Assembly: GCF_054482595.1 (NCBI RefSeq)
Contig: NZ_CM137008.1
Length of the DNA: 64,000 bases
Direction: 5' to 3' (one strand)
The position numbers and the translations under genes are program-made. Within the stretch, counting starts at the first letter, position 1, and the number at the start of each line of letters is the position of its first letter. The notes below the pieces were generated by a model. That model saw nothing but the letters and a program-made list of their open reading frames with translations, was not told where the DNA came from and did no database searches. Below, one piece after another: positions 94 through 55,790 of this stretch.

Positions 94-98
94 GGTTT

Positions 99-114: not shown

Positions 115-227
115 TGCATCTTTGACACATCCTTTAATATCTTAGCGGCTATAAAAATGGCTTATTAATTATGCGGTTTATTTGGTCGCTCTCAATTTTC
201 AGAGCGCGTTAATGATGGAAGGTCAAT

Positions 228-3458: not shown

Positions 3459-3464
3459 GCCATT

Positions 3465-5010: not shown

Positions 5011-5456
5011 AAAGCCATGACCTGAAGAAAGCGCTGTGTCAATGGACGGCGATGCTGGCCCTGGTGGTAAGCGGCGCGGTTTGGGCGGCTAATGGCGTCG
5101 ATTTTAGCCAGTCGCCGGAAGTATCCGGGACGCAGGAAGGGGCCATTCGGATGCCAAAAGAGCAGGATCGGATGCCGCTGAACTATGTGAATCAGCCGCC
5201 AATGATCCCGCATAGCGTTGAAGGTTATCAGGTAACGACCAATACCAACCGCTGCTTGCAGTGCCACGGTGTCGAAAGCTATCGCACCACTGGCGCGCCG
5301 CGTATCAGTCCTACTCACTTTATGGACAGCGACGGCAAAGTGGGCGCGGAAGTGGCTCCGCGTCGTTATTTCTGTCTGCAATGTCACGTACCGCAGGCCG
5401 ATACCGCGCCAATCGTGGGGAATACCTTTACCCCATCAAAAGGTTACGGGAAATAA
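5007..5456 (+). CDS. napB: Dihaem cytochrome c NapB
   Basis: Start set at MKSHDLKK (internal Met of the 156-aa ORF); two CxxCH haem motifs (CLQCH, CLQCH); recognised as NapB. Confidence 0.9.
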   Translation: MKSHDLKKALCQWTAMLALVVSGAVWAANGVDFSQSPEVSGTQEGAIRMPKEQDRMPLNYVNQPPMIPHSVEGYQVTTNTNRCLQCHGVESYRTTGAPRISPTHFMDSDGKVGAEVAPRRYFCLQCHVPQADTAPIVGNTFTPSKGYGK

Positions 5457-5465
5457 GAGGTTATT

Positions 5466-6068
5466 ATGGGAAATTCTGACCGTAAGCCTGGTCTGATTAA
5501 GCGCCTGTGGAAATGGTGGCGTACCCCCAGCCGTCTGGCGCTGGGGACGCTGCTGTTGATCGGTTTTGTCGGCGGCATCGTCTTCTGGGGCGGCTTTAAC
5601 ACCGGGATGGAAAAAGCCAATACCGAAGAGTTCTGCATTAGCTGCCACGAAATGCGTAACACGGTGTATCAGGAATACATGGATTCCGTGCACTACAACA
5701 ACCGTAGCGGCGTCCGTGCGACCTGTCCGGATTGTCACGTTCCGCACGAGTTTGTGCCGAAGATGATACGCAAGCTCAAAGCAAGTAAAGAGCTGTATGG
5801 TAAAATTTTTGGCGTTATTGACACGCCGCAGAAATTTGAAGCTCATCGTCTGACGATGGCACAGAATGAGTGGCGGCGCATGAAGGACAATAACTCGCAG
5901 GAGTGCCGTAACTGTCACAACTTCGAGTATATGGATACAACCGCCCAGAAATCGGTTGCCGCGAAGATGCATGACCAGGCGGTGAAAGATGGGCAAACCT
6001 GTATTGATTGCCATAAAGGGATAGCGCACAAGCTGCCCGATATGCGTGAAGTCGAGCCAGGTTTTTAA
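5466..6068 (+). CDS. napC: Tetrahaem cytochrome c NapC (NapC/NirT family)
   Basis: 200 aa, N-terminal TM anchor and four CxxCH motifs; recognised as NapC. Confidence 0.94.
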   Translation: MGNSDRKPGLIKRLWKWWRTPSRLALGTLLLIGFVGGIVFWGGFNTGMEKANTEEFCISCHEMRNTVYQEYMDSVHYNNRSGVRATCPDCHVPHEFVPKMIRKLKASKELYGKIFGVIDTPQKFEAHRLTMAQNEWRRMKDNNSQECRNCHNFEYMDTTAQKSVAAKMHDQAVKDGQTCIDCHKGIAHKLPDMREVEPGF

Positions 6069-6080
6069 CAAGGTTATTGC

Positions 6081-6704
6081 GTGGGTATGCTTGAAGCCAG
6101 AGAGTTACTTTGTGAGCGGGATGAACGAACCTTATTTAGTGGCTTGTCATTTACGCTGAACGCAGGAGAGTGGGTACAAATCACCGGTAGCAACGGCGCG
6201 GGGAAGACAACGCTTCTCCGTTTGCTGACGGGGTTGTCTCGCCCTGACGCAGGCGAGGTTCTCTGGCAAGGGCAGCCCTTGCATCAGGTACGTGACAGCT
6301 ACCATCAAAACCTGTTATGGATAGGCCATCAGCCGGGGATCAAAACCCGGCTGACGGCGTTAGAAAATCTGCACTTTTATCATCGCGATGGCGATACCGC
6401 ACAATGTCTGGAAGCCCTGGCGCAGGCCGGGCTTGCCGGATTCGAAGATATTCCGGTAAATCAACTTTCTGCCGGGCAACAACGCCGCGTCGCTTTAGCG
6501 CGTCTGTGGCTGACCCGTGCCACGTTATGGATCCTCGACGAGCCTTTTACCGCGATTGACGTCAACGGCGTCGATCGTCTGACCCAGCGTATGGCGCAGC
6601 ATACGGAGCAGGGGGGGATTGTGATTCTGACTACCCACCAGCCGCTCAACGTTGCTGAAAGTAAAATTCGCCGCATTTCACTGACGCAAACGAGGGCTGC
6701 ATGA
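6081..6704 (+). CDS. ccmA: Haem exporter ATP-binding protein CcmA
   Basis: 207 aa, Walker [13 protein letters not shown] signature [11 protein letters not shown] start. Confidence 0.93.
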
Positions 6705-7363
6705 TGTTCTGGCGCATTTTCCGTCTTGAGCTGCGCGTAGCGTTTCGCCATAGCGCCGAAATCGCCAACCCGCTGTGGTTCTTCCTGATTGTAATTACCC
6801 TTTTTCCGCTCAGTATCGGTCCGGAGCCGCAACTGCTGGCGCGTATTGCACCGGGCATTATCTGGGTTGCTGCGCTGCTTTCATCCTTGCTGGCGCTGGA
6901 ACGACTGTTCCGTGACGATTTGCAGGACGGCAGTCTTGAACAATTGATGTTGTTGCCGTTACCCTTGCCCGCCGTTGTGCTGGCGAAGGTGATGGCGCAC
7001 TGGATGGTAACCGGTCTGCCGTTACTCATCCTTTCGCCACTGGTAGCAATGCTACTGGGAATGGATGTTTATGGCTGGCAAGTGATGGCGCTGACGCTGC
7101 TGCTGGGAACGCCTACGCTTGGCTTTCTCGGTGCACCGGGCGTGGCGCTGACAGTGGGACTTAAGCGCGGTGGTGTGCTGCTCAGCATACTGGTGTTACC
7201 GCTGACTATCCCATTACTCATCTTTGCCACCGCCGCGATGGACGCGGCTTCTATGCATTTGCCCGTTGACGGGTATCTGGCAATTTTAGGCGCGTTGCTG
7301 GCAGGCACCGCGACATTAAGTCCTTTTGCGACGGCGGCAGCGTTACGAATCAGCATTCAATAA
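6701..7363 (+). CDS. ccmB: Haem exporter membrane protein CcmB
   Basis: 220-aa polytopic membrane protein overlapping ccmA stop; recognised as CcmB. Confidence 0.92.
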
Positions 7364-7404
7364 CGCTGGATTACTGATTTTTGTTCGAGTCTGGTATCGA
7401 AACT

Positions 7405-8142
7405 ATGTGGAAAACACTGCATCAACTGGCGATCCCACCACGGCTGTATCAAATCTGTGGCTGGTTTATACCGTGGCTGGCAATTGCCAGTGTGGTCGTG
7501 CTTACCGTTGGCTGGATCTGGGGATTCGGCTTTGCTCCGGCTGATTATCAGCAGGGAAATAGCTACCGCATTATCTACTTGCATGTACCTGCGGCGATCT
7601 GGTCGATGGGCATTTATGCATCAATGGCGGTGGCAGCGTTTATTGGCCTTGTCTGGCAGATGAAAATGGCCAACCTGGCGGTGGCGGCGATGGCCCCCAT
7701 TGGTGCCGTGTTTACCTTTATTGCCCTGGTTACCGGCTCTGCATGGGGAAAACCGATGTGGGGCACCTGGTGGGTATGGGATGCACGTCTGACTTCTGAA
7801 CTGGTGCTGCTGTTTCTGTATGTTGGTGTCATTGCCCTGTGGCACGCCTTCGATGACCGCCGTCTGGCGGGCCGTGCGGCAGGTATCCTGGTGCTGATTG
7901 GCGTGGTGAATCTGCCGATTATTCATTACTCCGTGGAGTGGTGGAACACCCTGCATCAGGGATCAACGCGGATGCAGCAAAGTATCGATCCGGCGATGCG
8001 TTCGCCGCTGCGCTGGTCGATTTTTGGCTTCCTGCTCCTGTCTGCCACGCTGACGCTGATGCGGATGCGGAATTTGATTTTGCTGATGGAAAAACGCCGT
8101 CCGTGGGTGAGTGAACTGATACTGAAAAGAGGCCGTAAATGA
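7405..8142 (+). CDS. ccmC: Haem exporter protein CcmC
   Basis: Start set at MWKTLHQLAIPPRLYQ; WGxxWxWD tryptophan-rich motif present (WGTWWVWDARL). Confidence 0.92.
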   Translation: MWKTLHQLAIPPRLYQICGWFIPWLAIASVVVLTVGWIWGFGFAPADYQQGNSYRIIYLHVPAAIWSMGIYASMAVAAFIGLVWQMKMANLAVAAMAPIGAVFTFIALVTGSAWGKPMWGTWWVWDARLTSELVLLFLYVGVIALWHAFDDRRLAGRAAGILVLIGVVNLPIIHYSVEWWNTLHQGSTRMQQSIDPAMRSPLRWSIFGFLLLSATLTLMRMRNLILLMEKRRPWVSELILKRGRK

Positions 8143-8348
8143 CCCCTGCATTTGCTTCCTGGAATGAATTTTTCGCAATGGGCGGTTACGCCTTTTTTGT
8201 CTGGCTGGCGGTGGTGATGACCGTTATTCCGCTGGTGGTTTTGGTCGTGCACTCGGTGATGCAACATCGCGCAATTCTGCGTGGCGTGGCGCAACAGCGG
8301 GCGCGTGAGGCGCGTTTACGTGCTGCGCAACAGCAGGAGGCTGCATGA
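8139..8348 (+). CDS. ccmD: Haem exporter protein CcmD
   Basis: 69-aa single-TM protein between ccmC and ccmE, overlapping both. Confidence 0.88.
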
Positions 8349-8824
8349 ATATTCGCCGTAAAAACCGCTTGTGGATTGTCTGTGCCGTGTTGGCAGGGCT
8401 GGCGCTGACTATCGGTCTGGTGCTATATGCGCTGCGCTCGAATATCGATCTCTTTTATACGCCGGGGGAAATTCTCTACGGCAAGCGTGAAACTCAGCAA
8501 ATGCCGGAAGTCGGTCAGCGTCTGCGCGTTGGCGGGATGGTGATGCCGGGTAGTGTGCAGCGCGATCCCAATTCGCTGAAAGTGACCTTCACCATTTACG
8601 ACGCTGAAGGCTCAGTGGATGTCTCTTACGAAGGCATTTTGCCGGATCTGTTCCGTGAAGGGCAGGGCGTTGTGGTGCAGGGCGAGCTGGAAAAAGGCAA
8701 TCATATCCTCGCGAAAGAAGTGCTGGCGAAACACGACGAAAACTACACGCCGCCAGAAGTTGAGAAAGCGATGGAAGCTAACCACCGTCGCCCGGCGAGT
8801 GTTTATAAGGACCCAGCATCATGA
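8345..8824 (+). CDS. ccmE: Cytochrome c-type biogenesis haem chaperone CcmE
   Basis: 159 aa, N-terminal TM anchor; recognised as CcmE. Confidence 0.93.
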
Positions 8825-10764
8825 TGCCGGAAATTGGTAACGGGCTGCTGTGCCTGGCGTTAGGGATTGCGCTGCTGCTGTCCGTGTATCCGCTATGGGG
8901 CGTGGCGCGCGGAGATGCGCGCATGATGGCGTCTTCCCGCTTGTTTGCCTGGCTGCTGTTTATGTCTGTGGCTGGCGCATTTCTGGTGCTGGTCAATGCT
9001 TTCGTGGTCAACGACTTTACCGTCACCTATGTTGCCAGCAACTCCAATACCCAGCTTCCGGTGTGGTATCGCGTGGCGGCTACCTGGGGCGCACATGAAG
9101 GCTCACTGCTGCTGTGGGTGCTGCTGATGAGCGGCTGGACCTTTGCGGTGGCGATTTTTAGTCAGCGTATTCCGCTGGATATTGTGGCCCGCGTACTGGC
9201 GATAATGGGGATGGTCAGTGTCGGCTTTTTGCTGTTCATTCTCTTTACTTCTAACCCGTTCTCACGCACGTTGCCGAATTTCCCGATTGAAGGTCGCGAT
9301 CTTAACCCGCTATTGCAGGATCCGGGGCTGATCTTCCATCCGCCTCTGCTTTATATGGGGTACGTGGGTTTCTCGGTGGCGTTTGCTTTTGCCATTGCTT
9401 CTTTGCTGAGCGGGCGTCTGGACAGCACTTATGCGCGTTTTACTCGTCCGTGGACGCTGGCAGCGTGGATCTTCCTGACGCTCGGCATCGTGCTCGGTTC
9501 CGCATGGGCCTATTACGAACTCGGCTGGGGTGGCTGGTGGTTCTGGGATCCGGTAGAAAACGCCTCGTTTATGCCGTGGCTGGTGGGGACTGCGCTGATG
9601 CACTCGCTGGCGGTGACTGAACAGCGTGCCAGCTTCAAAGCGTGGACATTACTGCTGGCAATCAGTGCCTTCTCGTTGTGTCTGTTGGGGACTTTCCTCG
9701 TGCGTTCCGGCGTGCTGGTATCGGTACACGCGTTTGCGTCTGATCCGGCGCGCGGTATGTTTATCCTCGCCTTTATGGTGCTGGTGATTGGCGGTTCGCT
9801 GCTGCTGTTTGCCGCGCGTGGACACAAAGTTCGCTCACGCGTAAACAATGCGCTGTGGTCGCGGGAATCTCTGCTGTTAGCGAACAACGTTTTGCTGGTC
9901 GCCGCGATGCTGGTGGTGTTGCTGGGGACGCTGCTGCCGCTGGTGCACAAGCAACTGGGACTGGGCAGTATTTCGATTGGCGAACCGTTCTTCAACACCA
10001 TGTTTACCTGGCTGATGGTGCCGTTTGCGCTACTGCTGGGTGTCGGTCCTCTGGTGCGCTGGGGGCGCGATCGCCCACGTAAAATCCGCAATTTATTGAT
10101 TATCGCCTTCATCTCTACGCTGGTGCTGTCTCTGCTGTTGCCGTGGCTGTTCGAAAGCAAAGTGGTGGCGATGACGGTGCTCGGCCTGGCAATGGCCTGC
10201 TGGATTGCGGTGCTGGCAATTGCGGAAGCTGCGCTACGTATTTCACGCGGCACGAAAACCACCTTCAGTTATTGGGGGATGGTGGCGGCTCACCTGGGGC
10301 TGGCAGTGACAATTGTTGGCATTGCCTTTAGCCAGAACTATAGCGTTGAGCGTGATGTGCGCATGAAGTCCGGCGATAGCGTCGATATTCATGAATATCG
10401 CTTCACCTTCCGTGATGTCAAAGAGGTGACTGGCCCGAACTGGCGTGGCGGTGTGGCGACTATCGGCGTAACGCGAGAGGGTAAACCGGAAACGGTGCTG
10501 TATGCGGAAAAACGTTATTACAACACTGCCGGGTCGATGATGACCGAAGCGGCAATTGACGGCGGCATCACGCGTGACCTGTACGCGGCCCTCGGTGAAG
10601 AGCTGGAAAACGGCGCGTGGGCCGTGCGTCTTTACTACAAACCATTTGTTCGCTGGATTTGGGCGGGCGGGCTGATGATGGCGTTGGGCGGACTGCTGTG
10701 TCTGTTTGATCCTCGCTATCGTAAGCGCGTGAGCCCGCAAAAAACTGCGCCGGAGGCTGTATGA
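8821..10764 (+). CDS. ccmF: Cytochrome c-type biogenesis protein CcmF (haem lyase)
   Basis: 647-aa polytopic membrane protein with [12 protein letters not shown] motif. Confidence 0.95.
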
Positions 10765-11318
10765 AGCGCAAAGTATTGTTAATTCCGTTGATTATCTTCC
10801 TGGCGATTGCCGCGGCGCTGCTGTGGCAGCTGGCGCGTAATGCCGAAGGGGATGATCCGACCAATCTGGAATCGGCGCTCATTGGCAAGCCAGTGCCGAA
10901 GTTTCGTCTCGAATCACTGGACAATCCGGGGCAGTTTTATCAGGCGGATGTGCTGACTCAGGGCAAACCAGTGCTGCTTAACGTCTGGGCGACCTGGTGT
11001 CCGACCTGCCGTGCGGAACATCAATATCTGAATCAGCTTTCTGCGCAGGGCATCCGCGTGGTCGGCATGAACTATAAAGACGATCGCCAGAAGGCAATCA
11101 GCTGGCTGAAAGAACTGGGCAATCCTTACGCGCTAAGCCTGTTTGATGGCGACGGCATGTTAGGGCTGGATCTCGGTGTCTATGGCGCGCCAGAAACGTT
11201 TCTTATTGACGGCAACGGCATCATTCGCTATCGCCATGCGGGCGATCTCAATCCTCGCGTCTGGGAAGAAGAGATCAAGCCGCTGTGGGAGAAATACAGT
11301 AAGGAGGCCGCACAATGA
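10761..11318 (+). CDS. ccmG: Thiol:disulfide interchange protein CcmG/DsbE
   Basis: 185 aa, thioredoxin fold with WCPTC active site. Confidence 0.94.
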   Translation: MKRKVLLIPLIIFLAIAAALLWQLARNAEGDDPTNLESALIGKPVPKFRLESLDNPGQFYQADVLTQGKPVLLNVWATWCPTCRAEHQYLNQLSAQGIRVVGMNYKDDRQKAISWLKELGNPYALSLFDGDGMLGLDLGVYGAPETFLIDGNGIIRYRHAGDLNPRVWEEEIKPLWEKYSKEAAQ

Positions 11319-12367
11319 GGTTTTTATTGGGCGTGCTGATGCTGATGATCTCCGGCTCAGCGCTGGCGACCATCGATGTGTTGCAGTTTAAAGATGAAGC
11401 ACAGGAACAACAGTTCCGTCAGCTCACTGAAGAACTGCGTTGCCCGAAATGCCAGAACAACAGCATTGCCGATTCCAACTCGATGATTGCCACCGACCTG
11501 CGCCAGAAAGTGTATGAACTGATGCAGGAAGGTAAAAGTAAGAAAGAGATTGTCGATTATATGGTGGCGCGTTACGGCAACTTCGTCACTTACGATCCGC
11601 CGTTAACGCCGCTGACCGTGCTGCTGTGGGTGCTGCCAGTAGTGGCTATTGGCATTGGCGGTTGGGTCATTTACGCCCGCTCGCGGCGTCGGGTACGCGT
11701 GGTGCTGGAAGCGTTTCCTGAACAAAGCGTGCCGGAAGGTAAGCGTGCCGGATATGTTGTTTATCTGCCGGGTATTGTGGTGGCGTTAATTGTGGCTGGC
11801 GTCAGCTACTACCAGACTGGCAATTATCAGCAGGTGAAAATCTGGCAGCAGGCCACGGCACAGGCTCCGGCGTTGCTGGACAGGGCGCTGGATCCGAAAG
11901 CCGATCCGCTCAACGAAGAAGAGATGTCGCGCCTTGCGCTGGGGATGCGTACTCAACTGCAAAAAAATCCGGGAGATATAGAAGGTTGGATTATGTTGGG
12001 TCGCGTTGGCATGGCGCTGGGTAACGCCAGTATCGCCACCGATGCATACGCTACTGCGTATCGCCTCGATCCGAAAAACAGCGATGCCGCACTGGGTTAT
12101 GCTGAAGCGTTGACACGTTCATCTGATCCCAACGACAACCGCCTCGGCGGCGAACTGCTGCGCCAGTTGGTGAGAACGGACCATAGCAATATTCGTGTGT
12201 TAAGCATGTATGCGTTTAATGCCTTTGAGCAGCAGCGATTTGGCGAAGCCGTTGCCGCGTGGGAGATGATGTTGAAACTCTTACCTGCCAACGATACTCG
12301 CCGTGCGGTGATTGAACGTAGTATCGCGCAGGCGATGCAACATTTGTCGCCGCAGGAGAGTAAATAA
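11315..12367 (+). CDS. ccmH: Cytochrome c-type biogenesis protein CcmH
   Basis: 350 aa, N-terminal CPKC motif (LRCPKCQNNSI) and C-terminal TPR-like region. Confidence 0.93.
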   Translation: MRFLLGVLMLMISGSALATIDVLQFKDEAQEQQFRQLTEELRCPKCQNNSIADSNSMIATDLRQKVYELMQEGKSKKEIVDYMVARYGNFVTYDPPLTPLTVLLWVLPVVAIGIGGWVIYARSRRRVRVVLEAFPEQSVPEGKRAGYVVYLPGIVVALIVAGVSYYQTGNYQQVKIWQQATAQAPALLDRALDPKADPLNEEEMSRLALGMRTQLQKNPGDIEGWIMLGRVGMALGNASIATDAYATAYRLDPKNSDAALGYAEALTRSSDPNDNRLGGELLRQLVRTDHSNIRVLSMYAFNAFEQQRFGEAVAAWEMMLKLLPANDTRRAVIERSIAQAMQHLSPQESK

Positions 12368-12397
12368 AAAGAGGCCCGATGGTGATTCCATCAGGCC
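12362..12397 (-). terminator. Rho-independent terminator (hairpin followed by U-run on minus strand)
   Basis: Imperfect 10-bp stem GGCCCGATGG/CCATCAGGCC preceded on the plus strand by AAATAAAAAGA (U-run on minus-strand RNA). Confidence 0.5.
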
Positions 12398-12426
12398 AGA
12401 CTGATGACAAAGTGCGCTTAGTTTAT

Positions 12427-12525
12427 GCCGGATGCGGCGTGAACGCCTTATCCGGCCTACACAATCGTGTGAATTCAATAAATTGATCGATCCGCGTAGG
12501 CCTGATAAGCGTAGCGCATCAGGCA
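12427..12525. repeat. REP/BIME elements (two REP-like palindromic units)
   Basis: GCCGGATGCGGCGTGAACGCCTTATCCGGCCTACA and CGTAGGCCTGATAAGCGTAGCGCATCAGGCA, the typical E. coli REP consensus, in the convergent ccmH/narP intergenic region. Confidence 0.8.
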
Positions 12526-12548
12526 GTTTTGCGTTTGTCATAAATCTC

Positions 12549-12580
12549 AGCCCGATGATAAATCCATCGGGCTATTTTTA
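12549..12580 (+). terminator. Rho-independent terminator
   Basis: Perfect 9-bp stem AGCCCGATG/CATCGGGCT, 7-nt loop, followed by ATTTTTATT; abuts the narP stop. Confidence 0.6.
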
Positions 12581-13225
12581 TTGTGCCCCGCGTTGTTGCA
12601 GGAACAGAATGGTGGCTGCCACGCGTGAGCGGACATTGAGTTTGCGCAGCAGATTGCGAATATGTACTTTTACTGTCTGCTCGGAAATATTCAACACCGA
12701 GGCAATCTGTTTATTTGACAGCCCCTGTGCCAGCTCGTGCAGAACATCCAGCTCGCGCTCCGTCAGCACGCTGAAGGGATCTTCTTCCGCGCCAAACATT
12801 TCACGTTCATGTAAGTACTGATTGACGCGTTCGCTAAAGACTTTGCTGCCTTTCGCTCCGGCACGAATCGCTTCCAGCAAAACTTCCGGGTCGCTGTCTT
12901 TCAACAGATAACCGTCTGCGCCTGCGTCTATCAGCGCAAAGACATCGCTGGAGGCATCTGATACGGTCAGGATAATAATTTGCGCGGTAACGCCATCCCT
13001 GCGCAAGGCATTGAGGGTATCCAGGCCACTCATACCTTTCATATTGAGATCCAGCAAGATCACGTCGATATCCAGTCTATTAGCCAGATCGATCGCGCTC
13101 GCGCCGTCGCCTGCTTCGGCGACCACTTCAAAGCCAGGATCAAGCTCCAGTAACTGACGAACACCGCGTCGCATAAGTGGATGATCATCCACAATCATCA
13201 CCTGAAAAGGCGTTGCTTCAGGCAT
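12578..13225 (-). CDS. narP: Nitrate/nitrite response regulator NarP
   Basis: Start set at MPEATPFQVMIVDDHP (215 aa); receiver domain plus LuxR-type HTH; recognised as NarP. Confidence 0.94.
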   Translation of the reverse strand: MPEATPFQVMIVDDHPLMRRGVRQLLELDPGFEVVAEAGDGASAIDLANRLDIDVILLDLNMKGMSGLDTLNALRRDGVTAQIIILTVSDASSDVFALIDAGADGYLLKDSDPEVLLEAIRAGAKGSKVFSERVNQYLHEREMFGAEEDPFSVLTERELDVLHELAQGLSNKQIASVLNISEQTVKVHIRNLLRKLNVRSRVAATILFLQQRGAQ

Positions 13226-13544
13226 AGTAGTCTCCTGAGGTTTTATTAGAATCATTATGTTTGAGCGTAGCGTTGGTATCGCTACCAGGCGCGTGAATGT
13301 TACCCCATTTTATGTATGGACATGTAGTGAAAACTACAACCTTGTCGTTCGTTTTGGCATCATTTTCATTATAAAGACGGAATTTTGCATCAGCTTCTCA
13401 TCAAGAAAAACAACTAAAAAATCAATCACAATACTTGTGCATTTCTTTAAACAGTTTTTAAAAACTGATTCCGGGTATGGAGCTATGGGTATTTTCTGTA
13501 CCCAATGCTTTTAACAGCAATTAATTTCATAGGATGAAAGCTCA

Positions 13545-16136
13545 ATGCATCAATCTGGTTCTGTTTCTCTTTGTCGTTCCGCAATATCTGTTCTGGTGGC
13601 TACAGCGTTATATTCACCCATAGCATTGGCATCAACAGTTGAGTATGGTGAGACAGTTGATGGTGTTGTCCTGGAAAAAGATATCCAGCTGGTTTATGGG
13701 ACCGCCAATAATACGAAAATCAATCCTGGCGGAGAACAGCATATTAAAGAATTTGGTATAAGTAGTAATACTGAAATTAACGGCGGGTATCAGTACATTG
13801 AAATGAATGGCACCGCAGAATACTCCGTATTAAATGATGGTTATCAAATTGTTCAAATGGGTGGCGCGGCAAACCAGACTACCCTCAATAATGGTGTGCT
13901 ACAGGTTTATGGCGCAGCGAATGATCCCACGATTAAAGGCGGGCGCTTAATCGTTGAAAAAGATGGGATTACCGTCCTTGCCGCTATCGAAAAGGGAGGA
14001 TTACTGGAGGTTAAAGAGGGGGGATTAGCGATTGCGGTAGATCAGAAAGCAGGCGGTGCTATTAAAGCAACCACGCGGGTCATGGAGGTATTCGGAACAA
14101 ACCGTCTCGGTCAGTTCGATATCAAGAATGGAATTGCAAACAATATGCTGTTGGAAAACGGCGGAAGTTTGCGAGTTGAAGAAAATGACTTCGCTTATAA
14201 TACTACTGTAGATAGTGGCGGCTTACTGGAGGTTATGGATGGCGGGACTGCAACTGGCGTTGATAAAAAAGCAGGCGGAAAATTAATTGTCTCAACGAAT
14301 GCGCTGGAAGTGAGTGGTACAAACAGTAAAGGCCAATTTAGTATAAAAGATGGTGTGTCAAAAAATTATGAACTGGATGATGGTTCCGGGCTTATTGTTA
14401 TGGAGGACACGCAGGCCATTGACACTATCCTTGATGAGCATGCCACTATGCAATCGCTGGGAAAGGATACTGGTACGAGAGTGCAGGCAAATGCGGTATA
14501 TGATCTCGGTCGATCAGATCAGAATGGAAGTATAACGTATTCCTCTAAAGCCATCTCTGAAAATATGGTTATCAACAATGGCCGCGCTAACGTCTGGGCT
14601 GGCACAATGGTTAACGTTTCAGTCAGAGGGAATGATGGCATTCTTGAGGTCATGAAGCCGCAAATAAATTATGCACCCGCAATGTTGGTGGGTAAGGTAG
14701 TGGTTTCTGAGGGCGCTTCTTTTAGAACGCATGGTGCCGTGGATACCAGCAAAGCGGACGTTTCGCTCGAAAATAGCGTATGGACCATCATTGCCGATAT
14801 CACTACGACGAACCAAAACACCCTCCTCAACTTAGCCAACCTTGCGATGTCTGACGCAAATGTGATTATGATGGATGAGCCAGTGACTCGTTCATCAGTG
14901 ACGGCAAGTGCGGAAAATTTCATTACGTTGACCACCAATACCCTGTCGGGAAACGGCAATTTTTATATGCGTACCGATATGGCTAATCATCAGAGCGATC
15001 AGCTCAACGTCACCGGTCAGGCAACAGGTGATTTCAAAATATTCGTGACGGACACCGGTGCCAGCCCGGCAGCAGGAGATAGCCTTACACTGGTAACAAC
15101 GGGCGGCGGTGATGCTGCATTTACGTTGGGCAATGCCGGAGGCGTTGTTGATATCGGTACGTATGAATATACCTTGCTGGATAATGGTAACCATAGCTGG
15201 AGTCTGGCAGAGAATCGCGCGCAAATTACCCCTTCAACCACTGATGTGCTGAATATGGCGGCCGCACAACCGCTGGTATTTGATGCAGAACTGGACACCG
15301 TGCGTGAGCGTCTTGGTAGCGTAAAAGGCGTTAGTTACGATACGGCGATGTGGAGTTCGGCAATTAACACCCGCAACAACGTGACCACTGATGCGGGAGC
15401 TGGTTTTGAGCAAACATTGACGGGCCTGACGCTCGGTATCGATAGCCGTTTCTCCCGTGAAGAAAGCAGCACAATTCGCGGCTTGTTCTTTGGTTACTCT
15501 CATTCTGATATTGGTTTTGATCGCGGCGGAAAAGGTAATATCGATAGCTATACCCTGGGGGCTTATGCCGGTTGGGAGCATCAGAACGGTGCCTATGTTG
15601 ATGGGGTGGTGAAAGTTGACCGTTTTGCCAACACCATCCATGGCAAGATGAGTAATGGGACAACAGCGTTTGGCGATTACAATAGTAACGGCGCGGGTGC
15701 TCATGTTGAGAGCGGGTTCCGTTGGGTTGACGGATTGTGGAGTGTTAGACCCTATCTGGCCTTTACCGGCTTTACCACAGATGGTCAGGACTACACGTTA
15801 TCAAACGGCATGCGCGCGGACGTGGGAAATACCCGGATATTACGCGCTGAAGCGGGAACGGCGGTAAGCTATCACATGGACCTGCAAAACGGTACGACGC
15901 TGGAACCCTGGCTGAAAGCCGCCGTACGTCAGGAATACGCCGATTCTAACCAGGTGAAAGTTAATGACGATGGCAAATTTAATAATGATGTGGCTGGAAC
16001 CCGTGGCGTTTATCAGGCTGGGATAAGGTCATCGTTTACCCCGACGTTAAGCGGTCATTTGTCAGTCAGCTATGGCAATGGCGCAGGGGTAGAATCGCCG
16101 TGGAATACTCAGGCGGGTGTGGTCTGGACGTTCTGA
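13545..16136 (+). CDS. yejO: Autotransporter adhesin YejO (intact)
   Basis: 863-aa ORF with signal peptide, repetitive passenger domain and C-terminal beta-barrel ending in W-T-F; recognised as yejO. Confidence 0.85.
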   Translation: MHQSGSVSLCRSAISVLVATALYSPIALASTVEYGETVDGVVLEKDIQLVYGTANNTKINPGGEQHIKEFGISSNTEINGGYQYIEMNGTAEYSVLNDGYQIVQMGGAANQTTLNNGVLQVYGAANDPTIKGGRLIVEKDGITVLAAIEKGGLLEVKEGGLAIAVDQKAGGAIKATTRVMEVFGTNRLGQFDIKNGIANNMLLENGGSLRVEENDFAYNTTVDSGGLLEVMDGGTATGVDKKAGGKLIVSTNALEVSGTNSKGQFSIKDGVSKNYELDDGSGLIVMEDTQAIDTILDEHATMQSLGKDTGTRVQANAVYDLGRSDQNGSITYSSKAISENMVINNGRANVWAGTMVNVSVRGNDGILEVMKPQINYAPAMLVGKVVVSEGASFRTHGAVDTSKADVSLENSVWTIIADITTTNQNTLLNLANLAMSDANVIMMDEPVTRSSVTASAENFITLTTNTLSGNGNFYMRTDMANHQSDQLNVTGQATGDFKIFVTDTGASPAAGDSLTLVTTGGGDAAFTLGNAGGVVDIGTYEYTLLDNGNHSWSLAENRAQITPSTTDVLNMAAAQPLVFDAELDTVRERLGSVKGVSYDTAMWSSAINTRNNVTTDAGAGFEQTLTGLTLGIDSRFSREESSTIRGLFFGYSHSDIGFDRGGKGNIDSYTLGAYAGWEHQNGAYVDGVVKVDRFANTIHGKMSNGTTAFGDYNSNGAGAHVESGFRWVDGLWSVRPYLAFTGFTTDGQDYTLSNGMRADVGNTRILRAEAGTAVSYHMDLQNGTTLEPWLKAAVRQEYADSNQVKVNDDGKFNNDVAGTRGVYQAGIRSSFTPTLSGHLSVSYGNGAGVESPWNTQAGVVWTF

Positions 16137-16197
16137 TAACAGAAAATAAACAGGCTGTGATGTGTCACGGTCTGTTTATCGAATTAATTGCAGATAT

Positions 16198-16228
16198 AAA
16201 AAAACCAACCGTAAGGGTTGGTTTTTTT
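16198..16228. terminator. Bidirectional rho-independent terminator (original proL/yejO terminator)
   Basis: Stem CCAACC/GGTTGG with loop GTAAG, flanked by an A-run upstream and T-run downstream. Confidence 0.65.
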
Positions 16229-16285
16229 GGGATTTTTGGTCGGCACGAGAGGATTTGAACCTCCGACCCCCGACACCCCATGACG
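16229..16285. repeat. attL: 57-bp direct repeat containing the displaced 3' 48 nt of tRNA-Pro
   Basis: Identical base-for-base to 55706..55762; positions 16237..16284 are the reverse complement of the tRNA-Pro 3' end including CCA. Confidence 0.85.
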
Positions 16286-48944: not shown

Positions 48945-49989
48945 ATTTCAGCGCCCGACGCTGGCAGAAAATATCAGTATGCTCCGTAACGATTTATTCG
49001 CCAGGCTGGACGTCAGCGACACGCTCCGGCGCATGGATGAAGACGTGCGGGCAAAGGTGTATGCGGCGGCGCTGCATACGGTTTACGGGTACATCGATTA
49101 TCTGGCAATGAACATGCTGCCTGATCTGTGCGATGAGTCCTGGCTGGCGCGACATGCTGCGATGAAACGGTGTCCGCGCAAGGGGGCCACGGCTGCCAGC
49201 GGGTATATGCGCTGGGAAGGTGTCAGCGATGGCCTGAAGGTGACCGCCGGAAGTGTTATTCAGCGCGATGACCTGGTTCAGTACACGGCAACTGCCGATG
49301 CAACCAGCACCGGTGGTGTCCTGCGCGTGCCGATCGCCTGCTCAAGTGCAGGCGCGGTCGGTAACGCTGACGACGGTACGTCATTAATTTTGGTCACGCC
49401 GGTTAATGGTCTGCCGTCTTCCGGCGAGGCAGATACCCTGACAGGTGGATTTGATACTGAAGAGCTGGAAACGTGGCGCGCCCGCGTCATTGAGCGGTAT
49501 TACTGGACGCCTCAGGGCGGGGCTGACGGGGACTATGTCGTCTGGGCTAAAGAAGTGCCCGGCATTACCCGCGCATGGACATACCGACACTGGATGGGAA
49601 CGGGGACTGTCGGTGTGATGATTGCCAGCAGTGACCTGATTAACCCCATTCCGGAAGAATCAACGGAAACGGCGGCAAGACAACATATCGAGCCACTGGC
49701 CCCGGTGGCAGGCTCTGATTTGTATGTATTCAGGCCGGTGGCGCACAAAGTGGATTTTCATATCCGCGTGACGCCGGACACACCGGAAATACGGGCTGCC
49801 ATCACCGCGGAGTTGCGTTCATTCCTGCTACGTGATGGTTATCCGCAGGGAGAGCTGAAGGTATCGCGTATCAGTGAAGCGATTTCCGGTGCGAACGGGG
49901 AATACAGCCATCAGTTGCTTGCTCCGGCGGACAATATCTCCATTGCAAAAAATGAACTGGCGGTTCTGGGGACGATTTCATGGACGTGA
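48931..49989 (+). CDS. Baseplate J-like protein (Mu gp47-like)
   Basis: 352 aa; conserved position. Confidence 0.7.
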
Positions 49990-50564
49990 CAAACGATGAT
50001 TACATCCGTCTGTTGTCGGCACTGTTGCCCCCTGGTCCGGCGTGGTCAGCCAGCGATCCGGCGATTGCCGGTGCGGCACCGTCATTAACCCGTGCTCATC
50101 AGCGTGCGGATGCCCTGATGCGGGAGCTGGATCCGCGCACCACCACCGAACTGATAAACCGCTGGGAGCGTCTGTGCGGCCTGCCGGATGAATGTATTCC
50201 GGCAGGGACGCAGACCCTTCGCCAGCGTCAGCAACGGCTGGATGCGAAGGTTAACCTGGCGGGCGGCATCAATGAGGATTTTTACCTTGCGCAGCTTGCT
50301 GCCCTGGGCAGACCAGATGCCACCATCACGCGATACGACAAAAGCACGTTCACCTGCTCATCGGCCTGTACTGACGCGGTGAATGCGCCGGAATGGCGGT
50401 ATTACTGGCAGGTCAATATGTCAGCTGCCACCAACACCACCTGGATGACATGTGGCGATCCCTGCGATTCCGCACTGCGTATCTGGGGGGACACCGTTAT
50501 CGAGTGCGTGCTTAACAAACTCTGCCCATCGCATACCTACGTAATTTTTAAATATCCGGAGTAA
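49980..50564 (+). CDS. Tail protein (Mu gp48 / YmfQ-like, DUF2313)
   Basis: 194 aa directly preceding the tail fibre gene, as e14 ymfQ precedes stfP. Confidence 0.6.
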
Positions 50565-50567
50565 TCC

Positions 50568-51494
50568 ATGCATCGTATAGACACGAAAACCGCGCAAAAG
50601 GATAAGTTCGGCGCGGGTAAGAACGGTTTTACCCGTGGTAACCCCCAGACAGGCACGCCTGCCACCGATCTGGATGATGACTACTTTGACATGTTGCAGG
50701 AAGAGCTCTGCAGCGTGGTGGAGGCATCCGGTGCCAGCCTGGAGAAGGGGCGGCATGACCAGCTGCTTACCGCGCTTCGTGCGCTGCTGTTAAGTCGCAA
50801 AAATCCGTTTGGCGATATCAAATCGGACGGCACGGTGAAAACGGCTCTTCAAAACCTTGGTTTGGGAGATACAAGCGGATACGTGGGACGCCGGCTGAGT
50901 ACCCGGGTTTTCACGTCATCAGGTACGTACACCCCGACGCCAGGAACAAAACGGATCAGGGTCACAATAACGGGCGGCGGTGGCGGAGGGGGCGGCTGCA
51001 AGGCTATATCCAATAATGAAACGTTTTTCGGTGCTGGCGGTGGGGCCGGTGGAACAATAATTTCAATAATGACCCCGACACAGAATAGTTATCCAGTCAC
51101 TATCGGCGCAGGTGGGGCCGGTGGTGTTAGTGCGACGAACGGCACCAGGGGCGGGAATAGCGTATTCGCATCGTTAATTGCTCCTGGTGGCGCAGGCGGC
51201 GGAAAGTCAGGAGTCACAAACACAAACGGTGGTAACGGCGGCGTGCCAAGTACTGGCGGTATCAACATCATTGGTGGAAATGGAGGCGACGGTCAGTCCG
51301 GAAATATCGGCGTCAGCGGTGAAGGCGGAACATCGTACTGGGGGGGCGGTGGACGCGCAGGCGCTGGCGGTGGTGTTAGTGGTAAGGCATATGGTTCAGG
51401 TGGCGGTGGCGCATACGATGCCGGTTATAGCGGAACCAGTATGACAGGCGGGAAAGGTGCTGCTGGGATTTGTATTATCGAGGAGTTTGCATAA
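50568..51494 (+). CDS. Tail fibre protein (constant N-terminus plus glycine-rich variable C-terminus in active orientation)
   Basis: 308 aa; conserved N-terminal about 95 aa, then Gly-rich repeats ([26 protein letters not shown]); inversion crossover site lies inside at 50852..50869. Confidence 0.8.
50852..50869. repeat. Invertase crossover site (left), AAACC-TT-GGTTTGGGAGA
   Basis: hix/gix-like core AAACC-NN-GGTTT; 17 of 18 nt match the reverse complement of 52678..52695. Confidence 0.65.
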
Positions 51495-51904
51495 TGAATG
51501 CGTCATATGCAGTTATTGAAAATGGGATGGTTGTGAATGTCATTGTCTGGGATGGCGAGGCTGAATTCACAGTGCCGGATAATCAGCAGCTCATTGATAT
51601 TTCTGATATCAGTGAGCATCCCGGAATCGGCTGGGGGTATTCAGACGGGGTATTTACTGCGCCGCTCCCTCCGGAACGTTCTCATGATGAACTGGTAGCT
51701 GACGCTGAACAGAAAAAACAGTCGCTGATAGACGCAGCAATGGCCAATATCAGCGTGATTCAGTTAAAGCTGCAGGCCGGGCGCAAACTGACGCAAGAAG
51801 AAACTACCCGACTTAACGTTGTGCTGGATTACATTGACGCGGTGACAGCAACTGATACCAGCACCGCGCCAGATGTCATCTGGCCTGAACTGCCGGAGGC
51901 GTAG
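51494..51904 (+). CDS. Tail fibre assembly protein (Tfa), active orientation
   Basis: ATG overlaps fibre stop (TAATG) with AGGAG RBS; C-terminal conserved Tfa tail (W/PELPE); mirrored by a convergent Tfa paralogue. Confidence 0.75.
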   Translation: MNASYAVIENGMVVNVIVWDGEAEFTVPDNQQLIDISDISEHPGIGWGYSDGVFTAPLPPERSHDELVADAEQKKQSLIDAAMANISVIQLKLQAGRKLTQEETTRLNVVLDYIDAVTATDTSTAPDVIWPELPEA

Positions 51905-52316
51905 GCCATTCAATATCTGGCCCACTGGAAGTATCGACCAGCTCCAGTGCGTCCAGATAATCCAGCCACAAATTATATTGCGCCAGTTCCTCACCTTTCA
52001 GACGACCAATAGCCGCTTTACCAGCCCATTGTTTACTGTTCATATAATCGTTAGCCTGATTAATCAATTGCTGCTTTTCCAGTTCGGCTGCAGCAATCTG
52101 TTCCTCATGTGTTGGTGGTGGAATTTCAGACCATGCAGGAAAACCATTTTCTCCAGCGATACGGATTTTTCCTTTCGGCGGTAATCCGGAAAACTCAATA
52201 TACGCTTGCTCATCAACTTCAACAGCATCATCTGGCCATGAGTCAGCTTGAGTGTAATCCTCTTTCATTTCCAGTGGATAGAAAGAGTTTGTAGTCGCGG
52301 AATATATGTAATTCAT
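51876..52316 (-). CDS. Tail fibre assembly protein (Tfa'), alternative, in inverted orientation
   Basis: 146 aa; convergent with tfa; C-terminus DIEWPTPPAVQAR similar to the active Tfa. Confidence 0.7.
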   Translation of the reverse strand: MNYIYSATTNSFYPLEMKEDYTQADSWPDDAVEVDEQAYIEFSGLPPKGKIRIAGENGFPAWSEIPPPTHEEQIAAAELEKQQLINQANDYMNSKQWAGKAAIGRLKGEELAQYNLWLDYLDALELVDTSSGPDIEWPTPPAVQAR

Positions 52317-52337
52317 TTTTCACTCCATATAGCTAAA

Positions 52338-52700
52338 TTAACAGCCTAACGCTAAAAATGAAGCGCCGAGACCTGGAGTACTGGCTCTGGATATAAATTT
52401 AACCGGGTCGGAACTAAAACCTGCGCAGGCAATATAACCAACAGACCCGCTATCTGGTGTGTAGTCTTGTGAGACCAAAACACGCAGACATCGGTTTGGA
52501 AATGCAATCGGAAAATGGGTTACCACATCCTGTGCAATGCCTGGTGCGCCGATTGAGCCCCACTGAAGAATAAAACCAGATGGTAATTTTTGATATCCAG
52601 TACCTGAAACAGAAAGCGTGAAGCTACCCATATCAGGTATCTGATTCGTCCCTGTCCCCACATTCCTTTTTGCCGCTTCTCCCAAACCAACGTTTATGAA
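52338..52700 (-). other. Alternative tail-fibre variable C-terminal coding segment (promoterless, inverted orientation)
   Basis: Open frame on minus strand from the right crossover site to 52338, Gly/Ser-rich like fibre tips; would be fused to the constant fibre N-terminus after inversion. Confidence 0.6.
52678..52695. repeat. Invertase crossover site (right), inverted relative to 50852..50869
   Basis: Reverse complement AAACGTTGGTTTGGGAGA matches the left site with one mismatch. Confidence 0.65.
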
Positions 52701-52756
52701 AATGCAGAAATAACAAGCAAATGGCATCATTCCTGCTTTTGTCAGGGAGATCTATC

Positions 52757-52885
52757 ATGCTTATTGGTTATGTACGCGTATCAACAAATGACCAGAATAC
52801 CGATCTACAACGCAATGCGCTGAACTGTGCAGGGTGTGAGCTGATTTTTGAAGACAAGATAAGCGGTACAAAGTCCGAGACCTAG
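52757..52885 (+). pseudogene. Truncated serine DNA invertase (Pin/Gin/Hin family), N-terminal 42 codons only
   Basis: MLIGYVRVSTNDQNTDLQRNALNCAGCELIFEDKISGTKSET then stop; matches the invertase N-terminus including the catalytic Ser region; remainder replaced by unrelated AT-rich DNA. Confidence 0.8.
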
Positions 52886-52980
52886 GGCTGACACTGCTGT
52901 TCTTGATGCAAATTAAAGGATTTAATAGTGAGTAGCGGCCTTACTAATGTAAGGCCGCTATAATCATTTTATTAATTGCA

Positions 52981-54930
52981 TTAATCGTGTTTTGGCCATA
53001 CTTTCAATGCAATTTCCCCCAACTTTTTACCCCGCTCCAGGATTTCATCCTCATCCCATTTATCCTTAACTATAAGTGGAATGTTCAGTCGTAGATTGGT
53101 GTGGACGATGAGAGCATCACGTTTTTTCAGAAATACAGCATTCTGAACAGAACGGTTTACGCTAAGGTTAAGCAAAGTTAGATTTCCCAACGTAGCTATC
53201 GCTTGTTGCCGTTTCCTTACCAGTAGCTGTTCAGGGGTAAGATCGGTTCCAGACAGAACAATTTGGTTCAATACCGTAGCATCTGAATTTGTCACCATAT
53301 GACCATTTTCGAGAGGCCAACAGGAAAACCAACTTTGAGGCATAAGATGATCGATATCGAGATTGGAAAGATTTGGACCATCAGGCTTCTCTGTCTTCAC
53401 TTGGCGACAAAGTTCTCTTTCAAGTTCCGTTAACATTGAGCGCATTTTCGGTGCGTCGAGCCTGCCAGGATAAAGTGGAGCATTGATGCAAGCATTGAGA
53501 AATTCTGAGTCACCAGGCCAACGTGAGGCTTCGCCATTTAAGCTATTGAGGATATTACGTAACTCAACACTGGAAATTTCCGTTTTAGACAAGTGCCGCA
53601 ATACATTCATAAATACATTGTTGTAATTCTTTGGCGTCAGGCCACATACGGCTCTTCGTACTACGTAGGAGACAAGATCATTATACATGGCTGCTTTCTC
53701 ATCATCAGCGATGTTAGCTATCGAAATGAACAAAGCAAGCGGATAAAGTGTCGTCACATCATAGTCTGCGATGCGATATCCAAAGTGTGAGATGGGGGTT
53801 GTGCCAAAACCATCAACCAATTCTTTATATTGTGATGCATATTGTTTGAGGCGCTTTACTTGCAGATCTGCTCGTTGTGAAGACAAGTCCTTACTTACAT
53901 AATCACGATACTCATTGTAAAGGCGAGACAGATCAATTTCACGCTGCCTTTCTGATTGCAATGTCGCATGTACTAGCCACTCCATGCGTGGTTTATTAAT
54001 ACGTCCACGGCGTTGCTTTTCCGACCAGTATTTATCTTCAAAGCTCTTCCACTCATTTTCATATAATTCAATAGCATTAATATTTTCATGCTCAGCGCAC
54101 ATAAAGATATAGTTGCGAATAAGATCCGTGGCATGAAGTTCCGCCCCTCGCCCATTTAATGTTTCAAAAATTATTTGGGCATCATCTTCAGCTTCGAGAA
54201 ATATGCTTACCAGTTTCAGATCTGTTAAGACAGCCTCAATTAGAGCTACAGCATTTTCTTGTGGTGAGTGGTTTTCTATTTTAATCCATTTTATAAAGGC
54301 TTCAGTAAAAAAACATAATGCTTCTAGTGATGGCGGGTGATTAAAATGCTTACGCAACGTACCATGCTGCGTGAAACTATCAGAGAATACGTCCCGGAGA
54401 TCGTCAATATTTTCAACATTAAAACTTTGAATAAAATGAGTTTGATCCCGAAAAGTTGGCCATAGTTTGAAGCGTTCTACTTCTTTATTTCGCATTGTGT
54501 CTTCGTTTGAGTTTTTCAGGCAAGGCGAAATGAGAGCCTCTAAGCTGAAAAGATCCGTAGCACGTAATGCTAATCGGATGGATGCCAGAACATATTGAAG
54601 AGTGGTCAATCGTTGCTGACCATCAATAATATGTATGGAATCTACACCTAATAATCCTTTTTTTGATTGAGGTTCCAGTACAACCGCACCAAGGAAATGG
54701 GGAGTTGGTTTTGTACCCGAGAGCCGGGATTGTGCTTTCTCTAGGATATCCTCCAGTAGAGCTGACCATTGGTCTTGCTGAGTCCATACATAGGCACGTT
54801 GATAGAATGGAACACAGTATTGTCGGCGGTCTTGAAAAAGTTGTTGGACAGTTAGCGTCTCGGATTTCATGGTATACCTGTAAGCGACATTGTACAAAAG
54901 TGAGGAGTTAATCTGATTTAGAACAATCAT
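52981..54930 (-). CDS. GmrSD-like type IV restriction endonuclease family protein (N-terminal DUF262, C-terminal DUF1524/HNH-like)
   Basis: 649 aa; DUF262 motifs (YCVPFYQRAYVW, IIDGQQRLTTL) and C-terminal His-Me finger region (LDIDHLMPQSW ... NLTLLNLSVNRS); AT-rich. Confidence 0.75.
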   Translation of the reverse strand: MIVLNQINSSLLYNVAYRYTMKSETLTVQQLFQDRRQYCVPFYQRAYVWTQQDQWSALLEDILEKAQSRLSGTKPTPHFLGAVVLEPQSKKGLLGVDSIHIIDGQQRLTTLQYVLASIRLALRATDLFSLEALISPCLKNSNEDTMRNKEVERFKLWPTFRDQTHFIQSFNVENIDDLRDVFSDSFTQHGTLRKHFNHPPSLEALCFFTEAFIKWIKIENHSPQENAVALIEAVLTDLKLVSIFLEAEDDAQIIFETLNGRGAELHATDLIRNYIFMCAEHENINAIELYENEWKSFEDKYWSEKQRRGRINKPRMEWLVHATLQSERQREIDLSRLYNEYRDYVSKDLSSQRADLQVKRLKQYASQYKELVDGFGTTPISHFGYRIADYDVTTLYPLALFISIANIADDEKAAMYNDLVSYVVRRAVCGLTPKNYNNVFMNVLRHLSKTEISSVELRNILNSLNGEASRWPGDSEFLNACINAPLYPGRLDAPKMRSMLTELERELCRQVKTEKPDGPNLSNLDIDHLMPQSWFSCWPLENGHMVTNSDATVLNQIVLSGTDLTPEQLLVRKRQQAIATLGNLTLLNLSVNRSVQNAVFLKKRDALIVHTNLRLNIPLIVKDKWDEDEILERGKKLGEIALKVWPKHD

Positions 54931-55705: not shown

Positions 55706-55762
55706 GGGATTTTTGGTCGGCACGAGAGGATTTGAACCTCCGACCCCCGACACCCCATGACG
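55706..55762. repeat. attR: 57-bp direct repeat (overlaps 3' part of intact proL)
   Basis: Identical to 16229..16285. Confidence 0.85.
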
Positions 55763-55790
55763 GTGCGCTACCAGGCTGCGCTACGTGCCG
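55714..55790 (-). tRNA. proL: tRNA-Pro (anticodon GGG)
   Basis: 77 nt; reverse complement reads CGGCACGTAGCGCAGCCTGGTAGCGCACCGTCATGGGGTGTCGGGGGTCGGAGGTTCAAATCCTCTCGTGCCGACCA with T-loop GGTTCAAATCC and CCA end. Confidence 0.92.

Follow-up and report, generated by a model that had tools for sequence, protein, structure and literature searches.

Exact inversion products of an e14-like tail-fibre switch beside a truncated invertase gene in Escherichia coli prophages

Does an invertible tail-fibre segment become fixed once the gene of its own invertase has been cut short? The question is raised by a locus in a stretch of 64,000 nucleotides (nt) of NCBI RefSeq assembly GCF_054482595.1, contig NZ_CM137008.1 (hereafter the window, by which the whole stretch is meant), which is part of an Escherichia coli chromosome and harbours a ~39.5-kb prophage between yejO and tRNA-Pro(GGG)/yejM. 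In this prophage two inverted crossover sites enclose alternative tail-fibre tips with their assembly chaperones, and just outside the right site there is only the first part of a serine invertase gene. A preliminary description, made from the letters alone, had interpreted the locus as a Mu G-segment-like switch, probably locked. Here, we report that exact inversion products of the segment occur in public genomes beside the very same truncated gene. The locus is very probably a host-range switch of the e14 P type, whose own invertase was truncated but whose cis-acting parts were kept, and which still inverts with a related invertase coming from elsewhere.

Crossover sites, truncation and inversion products

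The two copies of the site, at 50852-50869 on the + strand (AAACCTTGGTTTGGGAGA) and at 52678-52695 on the - strand (AAACGTTGGTTTGGGAGA), are 17/18 complementary and lie 1,808 nt apart. Allowing up to 3 mismatches, these were the only matches of the 18-nt site in the window, where 0.05 were expected by chance, and at least 2 matches were obtained in 0 of 100 dinucleotide shuffles. Both copies extend to 26-bp sites having the hix/gix layout and a central dinucleotide that is identical when read inverted; aligned with gixL/R, cixL and the e14 sites, they display what is typical of the Hin/Gin/Cin/Pin systems, namely two inverted, imperfectly palindromic sites of ~26 bp, half-site cores of the AAACC/GGTTT type and the same central dinucleotide. 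The invertible segment corresponds to 50859-52688 (1.83 kb), and the distance from the right-site core to the ATG of the invertase gene is 67 nt, the same as in e14 and Mu; in their layout and this spacing the sites also agree with those of Mu and P1. Two alternative C-termini, convergent and each with its own Caudo_TAP chaperone, can be joined in frame to the constant part of the fibre, giving proteins of 308 and 213 amino acids (aa), as is the case in e14-type switches.

Of the invertase gene, which is intact and adjacent in the Hin/Gin/Cin/Pin systems, codons 1-42 alone remain: only residues 1-44 of PinE were matched in this stub by tblastn, and the DNA alignment with pinE breaks after nt 122. 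The predicted product keeps the active-site serine region and, with ~140 of 184 residues lost, cannot act as a catalyst. The 3' part of the gene was removed by the arrival of a gene encoding a GmrSD-type restriction enzyme. Up to this point the preliminary description was accurate: the inverted hix/gix-like sites lie where it had placed them and align computationally, the active fibre plus Tfa on the + strand and the alternative Tfa' plus fibre C-terminus on the - strand are as it had listed them, the adjacent invertase is indeed reduced to a 42-codon stub, with pinE homology ending at nt 122, and the fusion it had predicted between the constant N-terminus and the alternative tip is in frame and 213 aa long in silico, and is annotated in strain 50EVA.

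The segment 50859-52688 was inverted in silico, which fuses the constant N-terminus in frame with the gp53-like tip (213 aa), and the resulting construct of 2,601 nt was searched in 5,426 complete E. coli genomes. The genome of 50EVA corresponded to the inverted construct over 2,601 bases with 1 mismatch, located at window position 50421, far from both junctions, and its annotation carries the predicted 213-aa fusion fibre. The 50EVA prophage and that of the window are 99.98% identical (8 mismatches in 33 kb), and the junction between the invertase stub and the GmrSD gene is identical in the two. Since the two orientations occur on an identical truncated background, and one truncation starts in one orientation, the inversion came after the truncation.

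A second lineage, which has a different tip'/tfa' pair and another chromosomal site (near ydfV/flxA), and the same stub and GmrSD gene, provided a further exact pair: in-silico inversion of strain 127 yields the sequence of strain T2, the two showing 0 differences over ~6 kb. In a larger assembly collection, 27 contigs had the exact 308-aa isoform and 5 the exact 213-aa one; at least 6 further assemblies were in the inverted state, and every flipped contig with enough flank showed the 42-aa resolvase fragment, GmrSD and yejM. Moreover, the window-type haplotype was found in both states, unflipped in the window and in loci L027, L028 and L030, flipped in 50EVA, L014 and L018, with 0-6 differences in 10.6 kb once the orientation was normalised; a second segment haplotype also occurred in both (EC20-4B-2 versus L016, L017 and L019). 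These two haplotypes, each in both states, together with the pair of the second lineage, point to three or more independent flips since the truncation.

These data bear directly on whether the locus is a frozen relic, with no inversion since the truncation and both orientations predating it. An invertase of 42 codons is certainly non-functional, one orientation strongly prevails (127:3 when judged by the right junction, 17:3 among full-length loci, see below), and a K-12 pinE deletion was reported as locked (PMC12529663), all of which would fit such a relic. On the other hand, the truncation junction is base-for-base identical in both orientations within prophages that are themselves 99.98% identical, with no difference in the breakpoints, and a single truncation starts in one orientation, so that the other arose later; the same situation recurs in the second lineage and in the two haplotypes. 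We consider a frozen relic highly improbable, and the claim that the segment is probably locked is contradicted by the exact inversion product in 50EVA beside the same stub, by the pair of the second lineage, by the further inverted assemblies and by the two haplotypes seen in both states. That one orientation was simply mis-assembled deserves next to no weight. It is true that an assembler reports a single orientation from a mixed population; but assemblers are not misled by a repeat of 18 bp, a complete genome and at least 6 independent assemblies/read sets show the inverted state, and mixed cultures would themselves prove active inversion.

The position of the exchange can be read from the bases at which the two sites differ. 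The T at 50870 and its equivalent, A at 52677, which mark the inner half-sites, swap partners in the flipped genome, and the marker bases of the outer half-sites do not move; thus, the crossover leading to these exact products was confined to the common 13 nt TTGGTTTGGGAGA (50857-50869), core included. Moreover, DNA homology to the Shigella phages SfV, SfI, SfII and SfIV stops at 50869, the end of the left site, which identifies the sites as module boundaries.

This precision argues against general or short-homology recombination between the 13-18-bp inverted repeats, either RecA-dependent or by template switching during replication, in which no site-specific invertase would take part. The rarity of the inverted isoforms, and an acting invertase that has not been pinpointed, would agree with such a route; however, at least three independent events all fall within the same 13 nt, including the canonical crossover dinucleotide, in sites that resemble the pix sites of e14, and 13 identical bases are far below the length required for efficient RecA recombination. 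Furthermore, the window contains other inverted repeats of similar length, e.g., I5 (17 nt, 94%), at which inversion was neither seen nor looked for. Taken together, we regard recombination of this kind as very unlikely.

Alternatively, the flipped state could have been imported, if the segment had been replaced by homologous recombination with a co-infecting relative of opposite orientation and with an intact invertase. Fibre cassettes are clearly exchanged between prophages, the sites are exactly where homology to e14 and to SfV-like phages ends, the same 308-aa fibre is found in a prophage at the icd site (L026), and the baseplate haplotypes are mosaic. Nevertheless, segment and flanks are identical across the orientations (1 mismatch in 2,601 nt, 0 over 6 kb), so that the donor would need identical sequence throughout, and no intact-invertase element with this cassette pair was found at 80% query coverage in the 5,426 genomes, the nearest, EC102, being 91.8% identical. 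Import appears very improbable, and inversion in place after the truncation is the reading followed below.

A probable invertase acting in trans

In the mechanism that we propose, a serine invertase of the Hin/Gin/Cin/Pin family would pair the two inverted 26-bp sites and exchange strands at the central TT/AA, thereby flipping the 1.83-kb segment 50859-52688. In the orientation of the window, the 97-codon constant N-terminus would be produced with the glycine-rich tip, followed by the chaperone of the latter; in the flipped orientation, the same N-terminus would carry the gp53-like tip (the 213-aa fibre), followed by the other chaperone, and the two tips may change receptor specificity. The insertion of the GmrSD-type gene cut the invertase after nt 122, leaving no enzyme encoded, and the cis elements survived, i.e., both sites and, by homology, a putative Fis-binding enhancer in invertase nt ~19-90. 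Flipping would then occur in the presence of a related invertase encoded by another prophage or a plasmid.

We infer that a trans-acting invertase did the flipping, as catalysis in trans is the best explanation for a segment that apparently keeps what is needed in cis, in a family whose enzymes cross-act and in a species where pin-like genes appear to be very common. Experimentally, PinQ, which is encoded by prophage Qin, was able to invert the segment of e14 (PMC12529663). When a single-copy anchor together with the part of pinE missing from the stub was used as query, 4,741 of the 5,426 genomes matched; since the anchor is held by 294 only, most matches are probably to the pin part, and most E. 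coli genomes seem to have pin-like genes. One extra matching chromosomal place each was counted in 50EVA, T2 and ET474. As for the cis requirement, the systems of this family use a recombinational enhancer with two Fis sites, situated at the 5' end of the invertase gene. The stretch equivalent to the enhancer annotated within cin of phage P1 is wholly kept in the stub: 56/72 positions agree with cin and 69/72 with pinE, and GTATCAACAAATGA is an unchanged block. The enhancer of hin is 65 bp long and lies ~100 bp from hix (PMC3798978), and the retained stretch of the stub may likewise act as a Fis-dependent recombinational enhancer.

Several observations speak against this mechanism. No invertase other than the stub was found in the 64-kb window; the extra places counted in 50EVA, T2 and ET474 are candidates that may not be intact invertase genes, and some genomes with the same locus (e.g., EC20-4B-2) have no extra matching place. 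The enhancer function is a putative one, assigned by homology; a strict scan of 52690-52960 for the Fis consensus (GNNYRNNWNNYRNNC) gave no match, and a relaxed scan returned wrongly spaced sites. Any link between the tips and receptors is putative, and the orientation counts given below are not phylogenetically independent. Finally, the K-12 pinE deletion mutant mentioned above has its P segment locked despite native-level pinQ (PMC12529663), for which reason inversion in trans may be rare or conditional and need induced or particular enzymes. Presumably, that deletion also removes the enhancer, whose putative counterpart the stub here keeps.

If the enzyme has to come from elsewhere, how often does the segment flip? 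Among the loci with the stub-GmrSD junction, 127 were in the window orientation and 3 flipped when the right junction only was considered, many of the 127 being deletion remnants that lack the left site (e.g., L004). For the full 2,601-nt isoform at >=80% coverage, the counts were 17 and 3, respectively. The same method applied to a sister element with an intact pinE (L007 type), which likewise has an exact match to its in-silico inversion, gave 14 in the window orientation and 18 flipped. The difference between 17:3 and 14:18 has a Fisher p = 0.004, which ignores relatedness and is indicative only. For comparison, 33% of 562 e14 sequences were reported as inverted (PMC12529663). The skew of 17:3, set against 14:18 in the sister element, suggests that flipping was slowed, not abolished, and that it is less frequent than in elements with their own enzyme. 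Of the view that the segment is probably frozen unless an invertase acts in trans, the frozen state did not hold, whereas the reservation about an enzyme in trans is the part that fits.

A truncated invertase beside an invertible segment is, therefore, not to be equated with a fixed segment, and the three or more flips that followed the truncation fit a cross-talk between prophages via shared invertases. As the truncation spared the stretch which bears the enhancer in related systems, the locus offers a natural test case of whether an enhancer at the 5' end keeps 'orphan' segments switchable. One could go further and imagine, with little probability in our opinion, that the truncation was not simple decay: the insertion of the restriction gene left exactly the cis parts (both sites and the enhancer-bearing first 122 nt), and the switch might have been turned into a 'client' of the invertases of other prophages. 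The StfE2 chimera formed after PinQ-driven inversion of e14 was reported to block adsorption of phage T2 (PMC12529663); its analogue here would be a predicted open reading frame (ORF) of 224 aa on the invertase side of the flipped state. If this were true, the 224-aa ORF would make the element an inducible anti-phage device serving the host rather than, or as well as, a host-range switch of the phage.

Gene content and prophage setting

The features of the locus are collected in Table 1. The expressed fibre ORF is intact (308 aa), and its C-terminal two thirds belong to Gly_rich_2. Annotation by the Prokaryotic Genome Annotation Pipeline (PGAP) splits this continuous ORF into a 'StfP pseudogene' and a separate 'glycine-rich domain-containing protein' (window 50568-51494; L001 6169-7095), and the 308-aa fibre is named 'carbohydrate kinase' in many GenBank entries. 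The locus is mishandled by automated annotation, and an orientation-aware annotation is needed. On the minus strand, the mechanical ORF of cassette 2 runs on beyond the segment to an ATG at 52730; this ORF, 52338-52730, begins on the invertase side and reads across the right site, like 'stfE' of K-12. In flipped genomes the same invertase-side ORF has 224 aa and is fused to the glycine-rich tip (L015 6486-7160, - strand). A promoter-like scan of 50300-53100 gave 2 matches versus a shuffled mean of 3.5, with no above-chance promoter-like site within the segment. In NCBIfam, no family was found for any fibre, chaperone or GmrSD protein, and there were weak matches for the 42-aa stub only.

Table 1. 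Features of the switch and of the prophage that carries it (positions in the window).
Feature	Position	Strand	Evidence and remarks
attL, 57-nt direct repeat of the tRNA-Pro 3' region	16229-16285		longest exact repeat, shared with 55706-55762; homology to the 50EVA prophage begins at 16229
YmfQ / Mu gp48-like baseplate wedge gene	49980-50564	+	phrog_203 baseplate wedge subunit, E 3e-84; PGAP name ymfQ in relatives; Pfam Phage_Mu_Gp48 on identical genes; directly upstream of the fibre gene
Constant fibre N-terminus, codons 1-97, StfP-like, outside the segment	50568-50858	+	97% identical to K-12 StfP residues 1-101
Left crossover site, pix/hix-type, 26 bp	50845-50870	+	CTCTTCAAAACC-TT-GGTTTGGGAGAT, core 50857-50858; 23/26 identical to the K-12 e14 left site
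Variable cassette 1, glycine-rich fibre C-terminus, currently fused to the constant part	50859-51494	+	Pfam Gly_rich_2 residues 117-305, E 6e-14; PHROG tail-fibre families
Tfa, assembly chaperone of cassette 1, 136 aa	51494-51904	+	phrog_188 tail fiber assembly protein, E 5e-30; Pfam Caudo_TAP on identical genes
Tfa', assembly chaperone of cassette 2, 146 aa	51876-52316	-	phrog_188, E 1e-64; Pfam Caudo_TAP
Variable cassette 2, silent gp53-like fibre C-terminus without its own N-terminus	52338-52688 (to ~52690)	-	PHROG tail-fibre and virion-protein families; Pfam Gp53-like_C on the fused 213-aa protein of inverted genomes
Right crossover site, 26 bp	52677-52702	+	TTCTCCCAAACC-AA-CGTTTATGAAAA, core 52689-52690; 26/26 identical to the K-12 e14 right site
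Truncated serine invertase gene, 42 codons + stop	52757-52885	+	pinE homology nt 1-122 (52757-52878); PHROG DNA invertase, E 5e-30
Putative enhancer-equivalent stretch, invertase nt 19-90	52775-52846	+	P1 record annotates 'enhancer of Cin-mediated C-segment inversion' at cin nt 19-90
G+C-rich hairpin immediately after the truncation point	52932-52961		perfect 12-bp inverted repeat, 4-nt loop; terminator-like match
GmrSD-type Type IV methyl-directed restriction enzyme gene, outside the switch	52981-54870	-	PADLOC mREase_IV, 1418 bits, residues 21-649 versus profile 1-629 of 629; Pfam GmrSD_N + GmrSD_C on identical genes
attR, overlaps tRNA-Pro(GGG) 55714-55790	55706-55762		identity to 50EVA falls from ~100% to 98.6% beyond 55802

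The GmrSD gene, a 'DUF262' protein of 1,890 bp in PGAP, is full-length and lies inside the prophage, between the invertase stub and the prophage end, with the junction at ~52878-52960; K-12 e14 has mcrA, also of Type IV, in the same position, and the right end of this prophage family looks like a hot spot for defence cargo. The hairpin, a likely terminator for the convergent restriction gene, shows where the inserted DNA ends. In 50EVA, an IS3-family element, which is not in the window, sits in the 5' end of the GmrSD gene (L006 5488-6716, ~window 54748-54752).

The prophage is a complete-looking element of the myovirus type, integrated at tRNA-Pro (proL), and its near-identical copy in 50EVA is annotated with a full set of lysogeny, lysis, head, contractile-tail and Mu-like baseplate genes. 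The two copies are 99.98% identical, and the chromosomes beyond tRNA-Pro differ by 1.4%. Apparently, the phage changed backgrounds not long ago, and it may still be active. The prophage also carries a gene for a 97-aa Bor/Iss lipoprotein (31897-32190, - strand), a virulence-associated moron annotated in 50EVA as iss ('increased serum survival'). To the left of attL the window has yejO directly (nap-ccm-narP-yejO), whereas 50EVA has at the same tRNA site an extra island of ~17 kb (L005 1-16950 versus window 1-16228), with integrases, a relaxase and genes of an ABC-three-component system.

Two classes of deletion derivatives of this prophage were observed. In the first, everything from the HNH gene through the end of the glycine-rich cassette is lost, left site included (L004, NZ_CP063459, 4863-5118); such derivatives cannot invert and are common in avian strains. 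In the second, the gene of the terminase large subunit is joined almost directly to the fibre gene, in the flipped state (L014, L018). The icd-site (e14-site) prophage of L026 (GCA_022584615.1), in which the 308-aa fibre is identical, differs on its right side, having a GIY-YIG protein and no GmrSD. As this case shows, whole fibre cassettes are exchanged between prophages at different attachment sites.

Relation to known invertible switches

The switch can be assigned, by its homologies, to the P segment of e14, which is inverted by Pin; we use 'e14 P-type' for its membership and 'Mu G-like' for its mode of working. In e14 the sites are alike, 26/26 identical on the right and 23/26 on the left, with the same TT core, and the e14 repeats TTGGTTTGGGAGAAGG, which bound a segment of 1,797 bp, contain the same 13-nt core (PMC12529663); the segment here is ~1.83 kb. 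The gene order (fibre-tfa / tfa'-tip'-invertase) and the 67-nt spacing from site to ATG are the same, ymfQ lies upstream in both, and the constant N-terminus is 97% identical to StfP over 101 aa. At the DNA level, the two are 95% identical from ymfQ up to and including the left site; the homology is then interrupted and starts again with the right site's first base, reaching through pinE nt 1-122. Just past the invertase there is in both a Type IV restriction gene, mcrA in e14 and the GmrSD-type one here. By contrast, both variable cassettes, with glycine-rich and gp53-like tips, are unlike the C-termini of StfP and StfE: no significant similarity was found past the constant part or the first ~24 residues, and one tfa only shows 83% DNA similarity. 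The comparison with StfP and StfE, which the preliminary description had recommended, holds for the constant part and not for the cassettes, and the locus is a different cassette pair on the chassis of e14. Moreover, the invertase is cut here to 42 codons, and e14 is a 15-kb remnant at icd, whereas the host element here is a complete-looking prophage of 39.5 kb at proL.

With Mu G/Gin the locus shares the architecture, i.e., a constant fibre N-terminus, two convergent cassettes of tip plus chaperone and an invertase gene just outside the right site. The 26-bp sites follow the AAACC-NN-GGTTT pattern in both (AAACC-AA-CGTTT in the right site of the window), 67 nt separate the right boundary from the invertase start, identity between the stub and Gin residues 1-41 is 85%, and the baseplate genes of the prophage are Mu-like (gp45-gp48). 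The G segment is, instead, ~3 kb long, with a TC/GA core versus TT here, and the invertase here is not intact. In BLASTP against S, S', U and U' of Mu, Tfa' alone matched U', weakly (33% over 73 aa), and neither the fibre tips nor the constant part matched S/S'. Membership of the Mu G segment was rejected on account of this lack of similarity to S/S', a comparison that had also been suggested beforehand; as to the label 'Mu G-segment-like', the class (a tail-fibre switch of the Hin/Gin/Cin/Pin type) and the architecture are right, while the nearest relative is the P segment of e14.

The C/Cin system of P1 has a very similar site, cixL CAATCCTAAACC-TT-GGTTTAAGAGAA, with the same TT core, and its enhancer, annotated within cin at nt 19-90, falls in the stretch that the stub keeps; it differs in that cixL directly adjoins the 3' end of cin, and in the length of the C segment, 4.2 kb. 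What Hin inverts is a promoter of flagellin genes instead of coding cassettes for fibres, and the hin gene lies inside the H segment. The Salmonella Hin/H system nonetheless has an enzyme of the same family, sites of the same 26-bp design and, within the invertase gene at ~100 bp from the site, a Fis enhancer (PMC3798978). Among sequenced phage records, none had this cassette pair together with a truncated invertase, the best coverage being 38%. The locus is a known kind of system, a textbook member of the e14/Mu/P1 family of invertible tail-fibre switches; what is modestly interesting about it is that the segment, though orphaned, can still switch, next to a stub which keeps the putative enhancer region.

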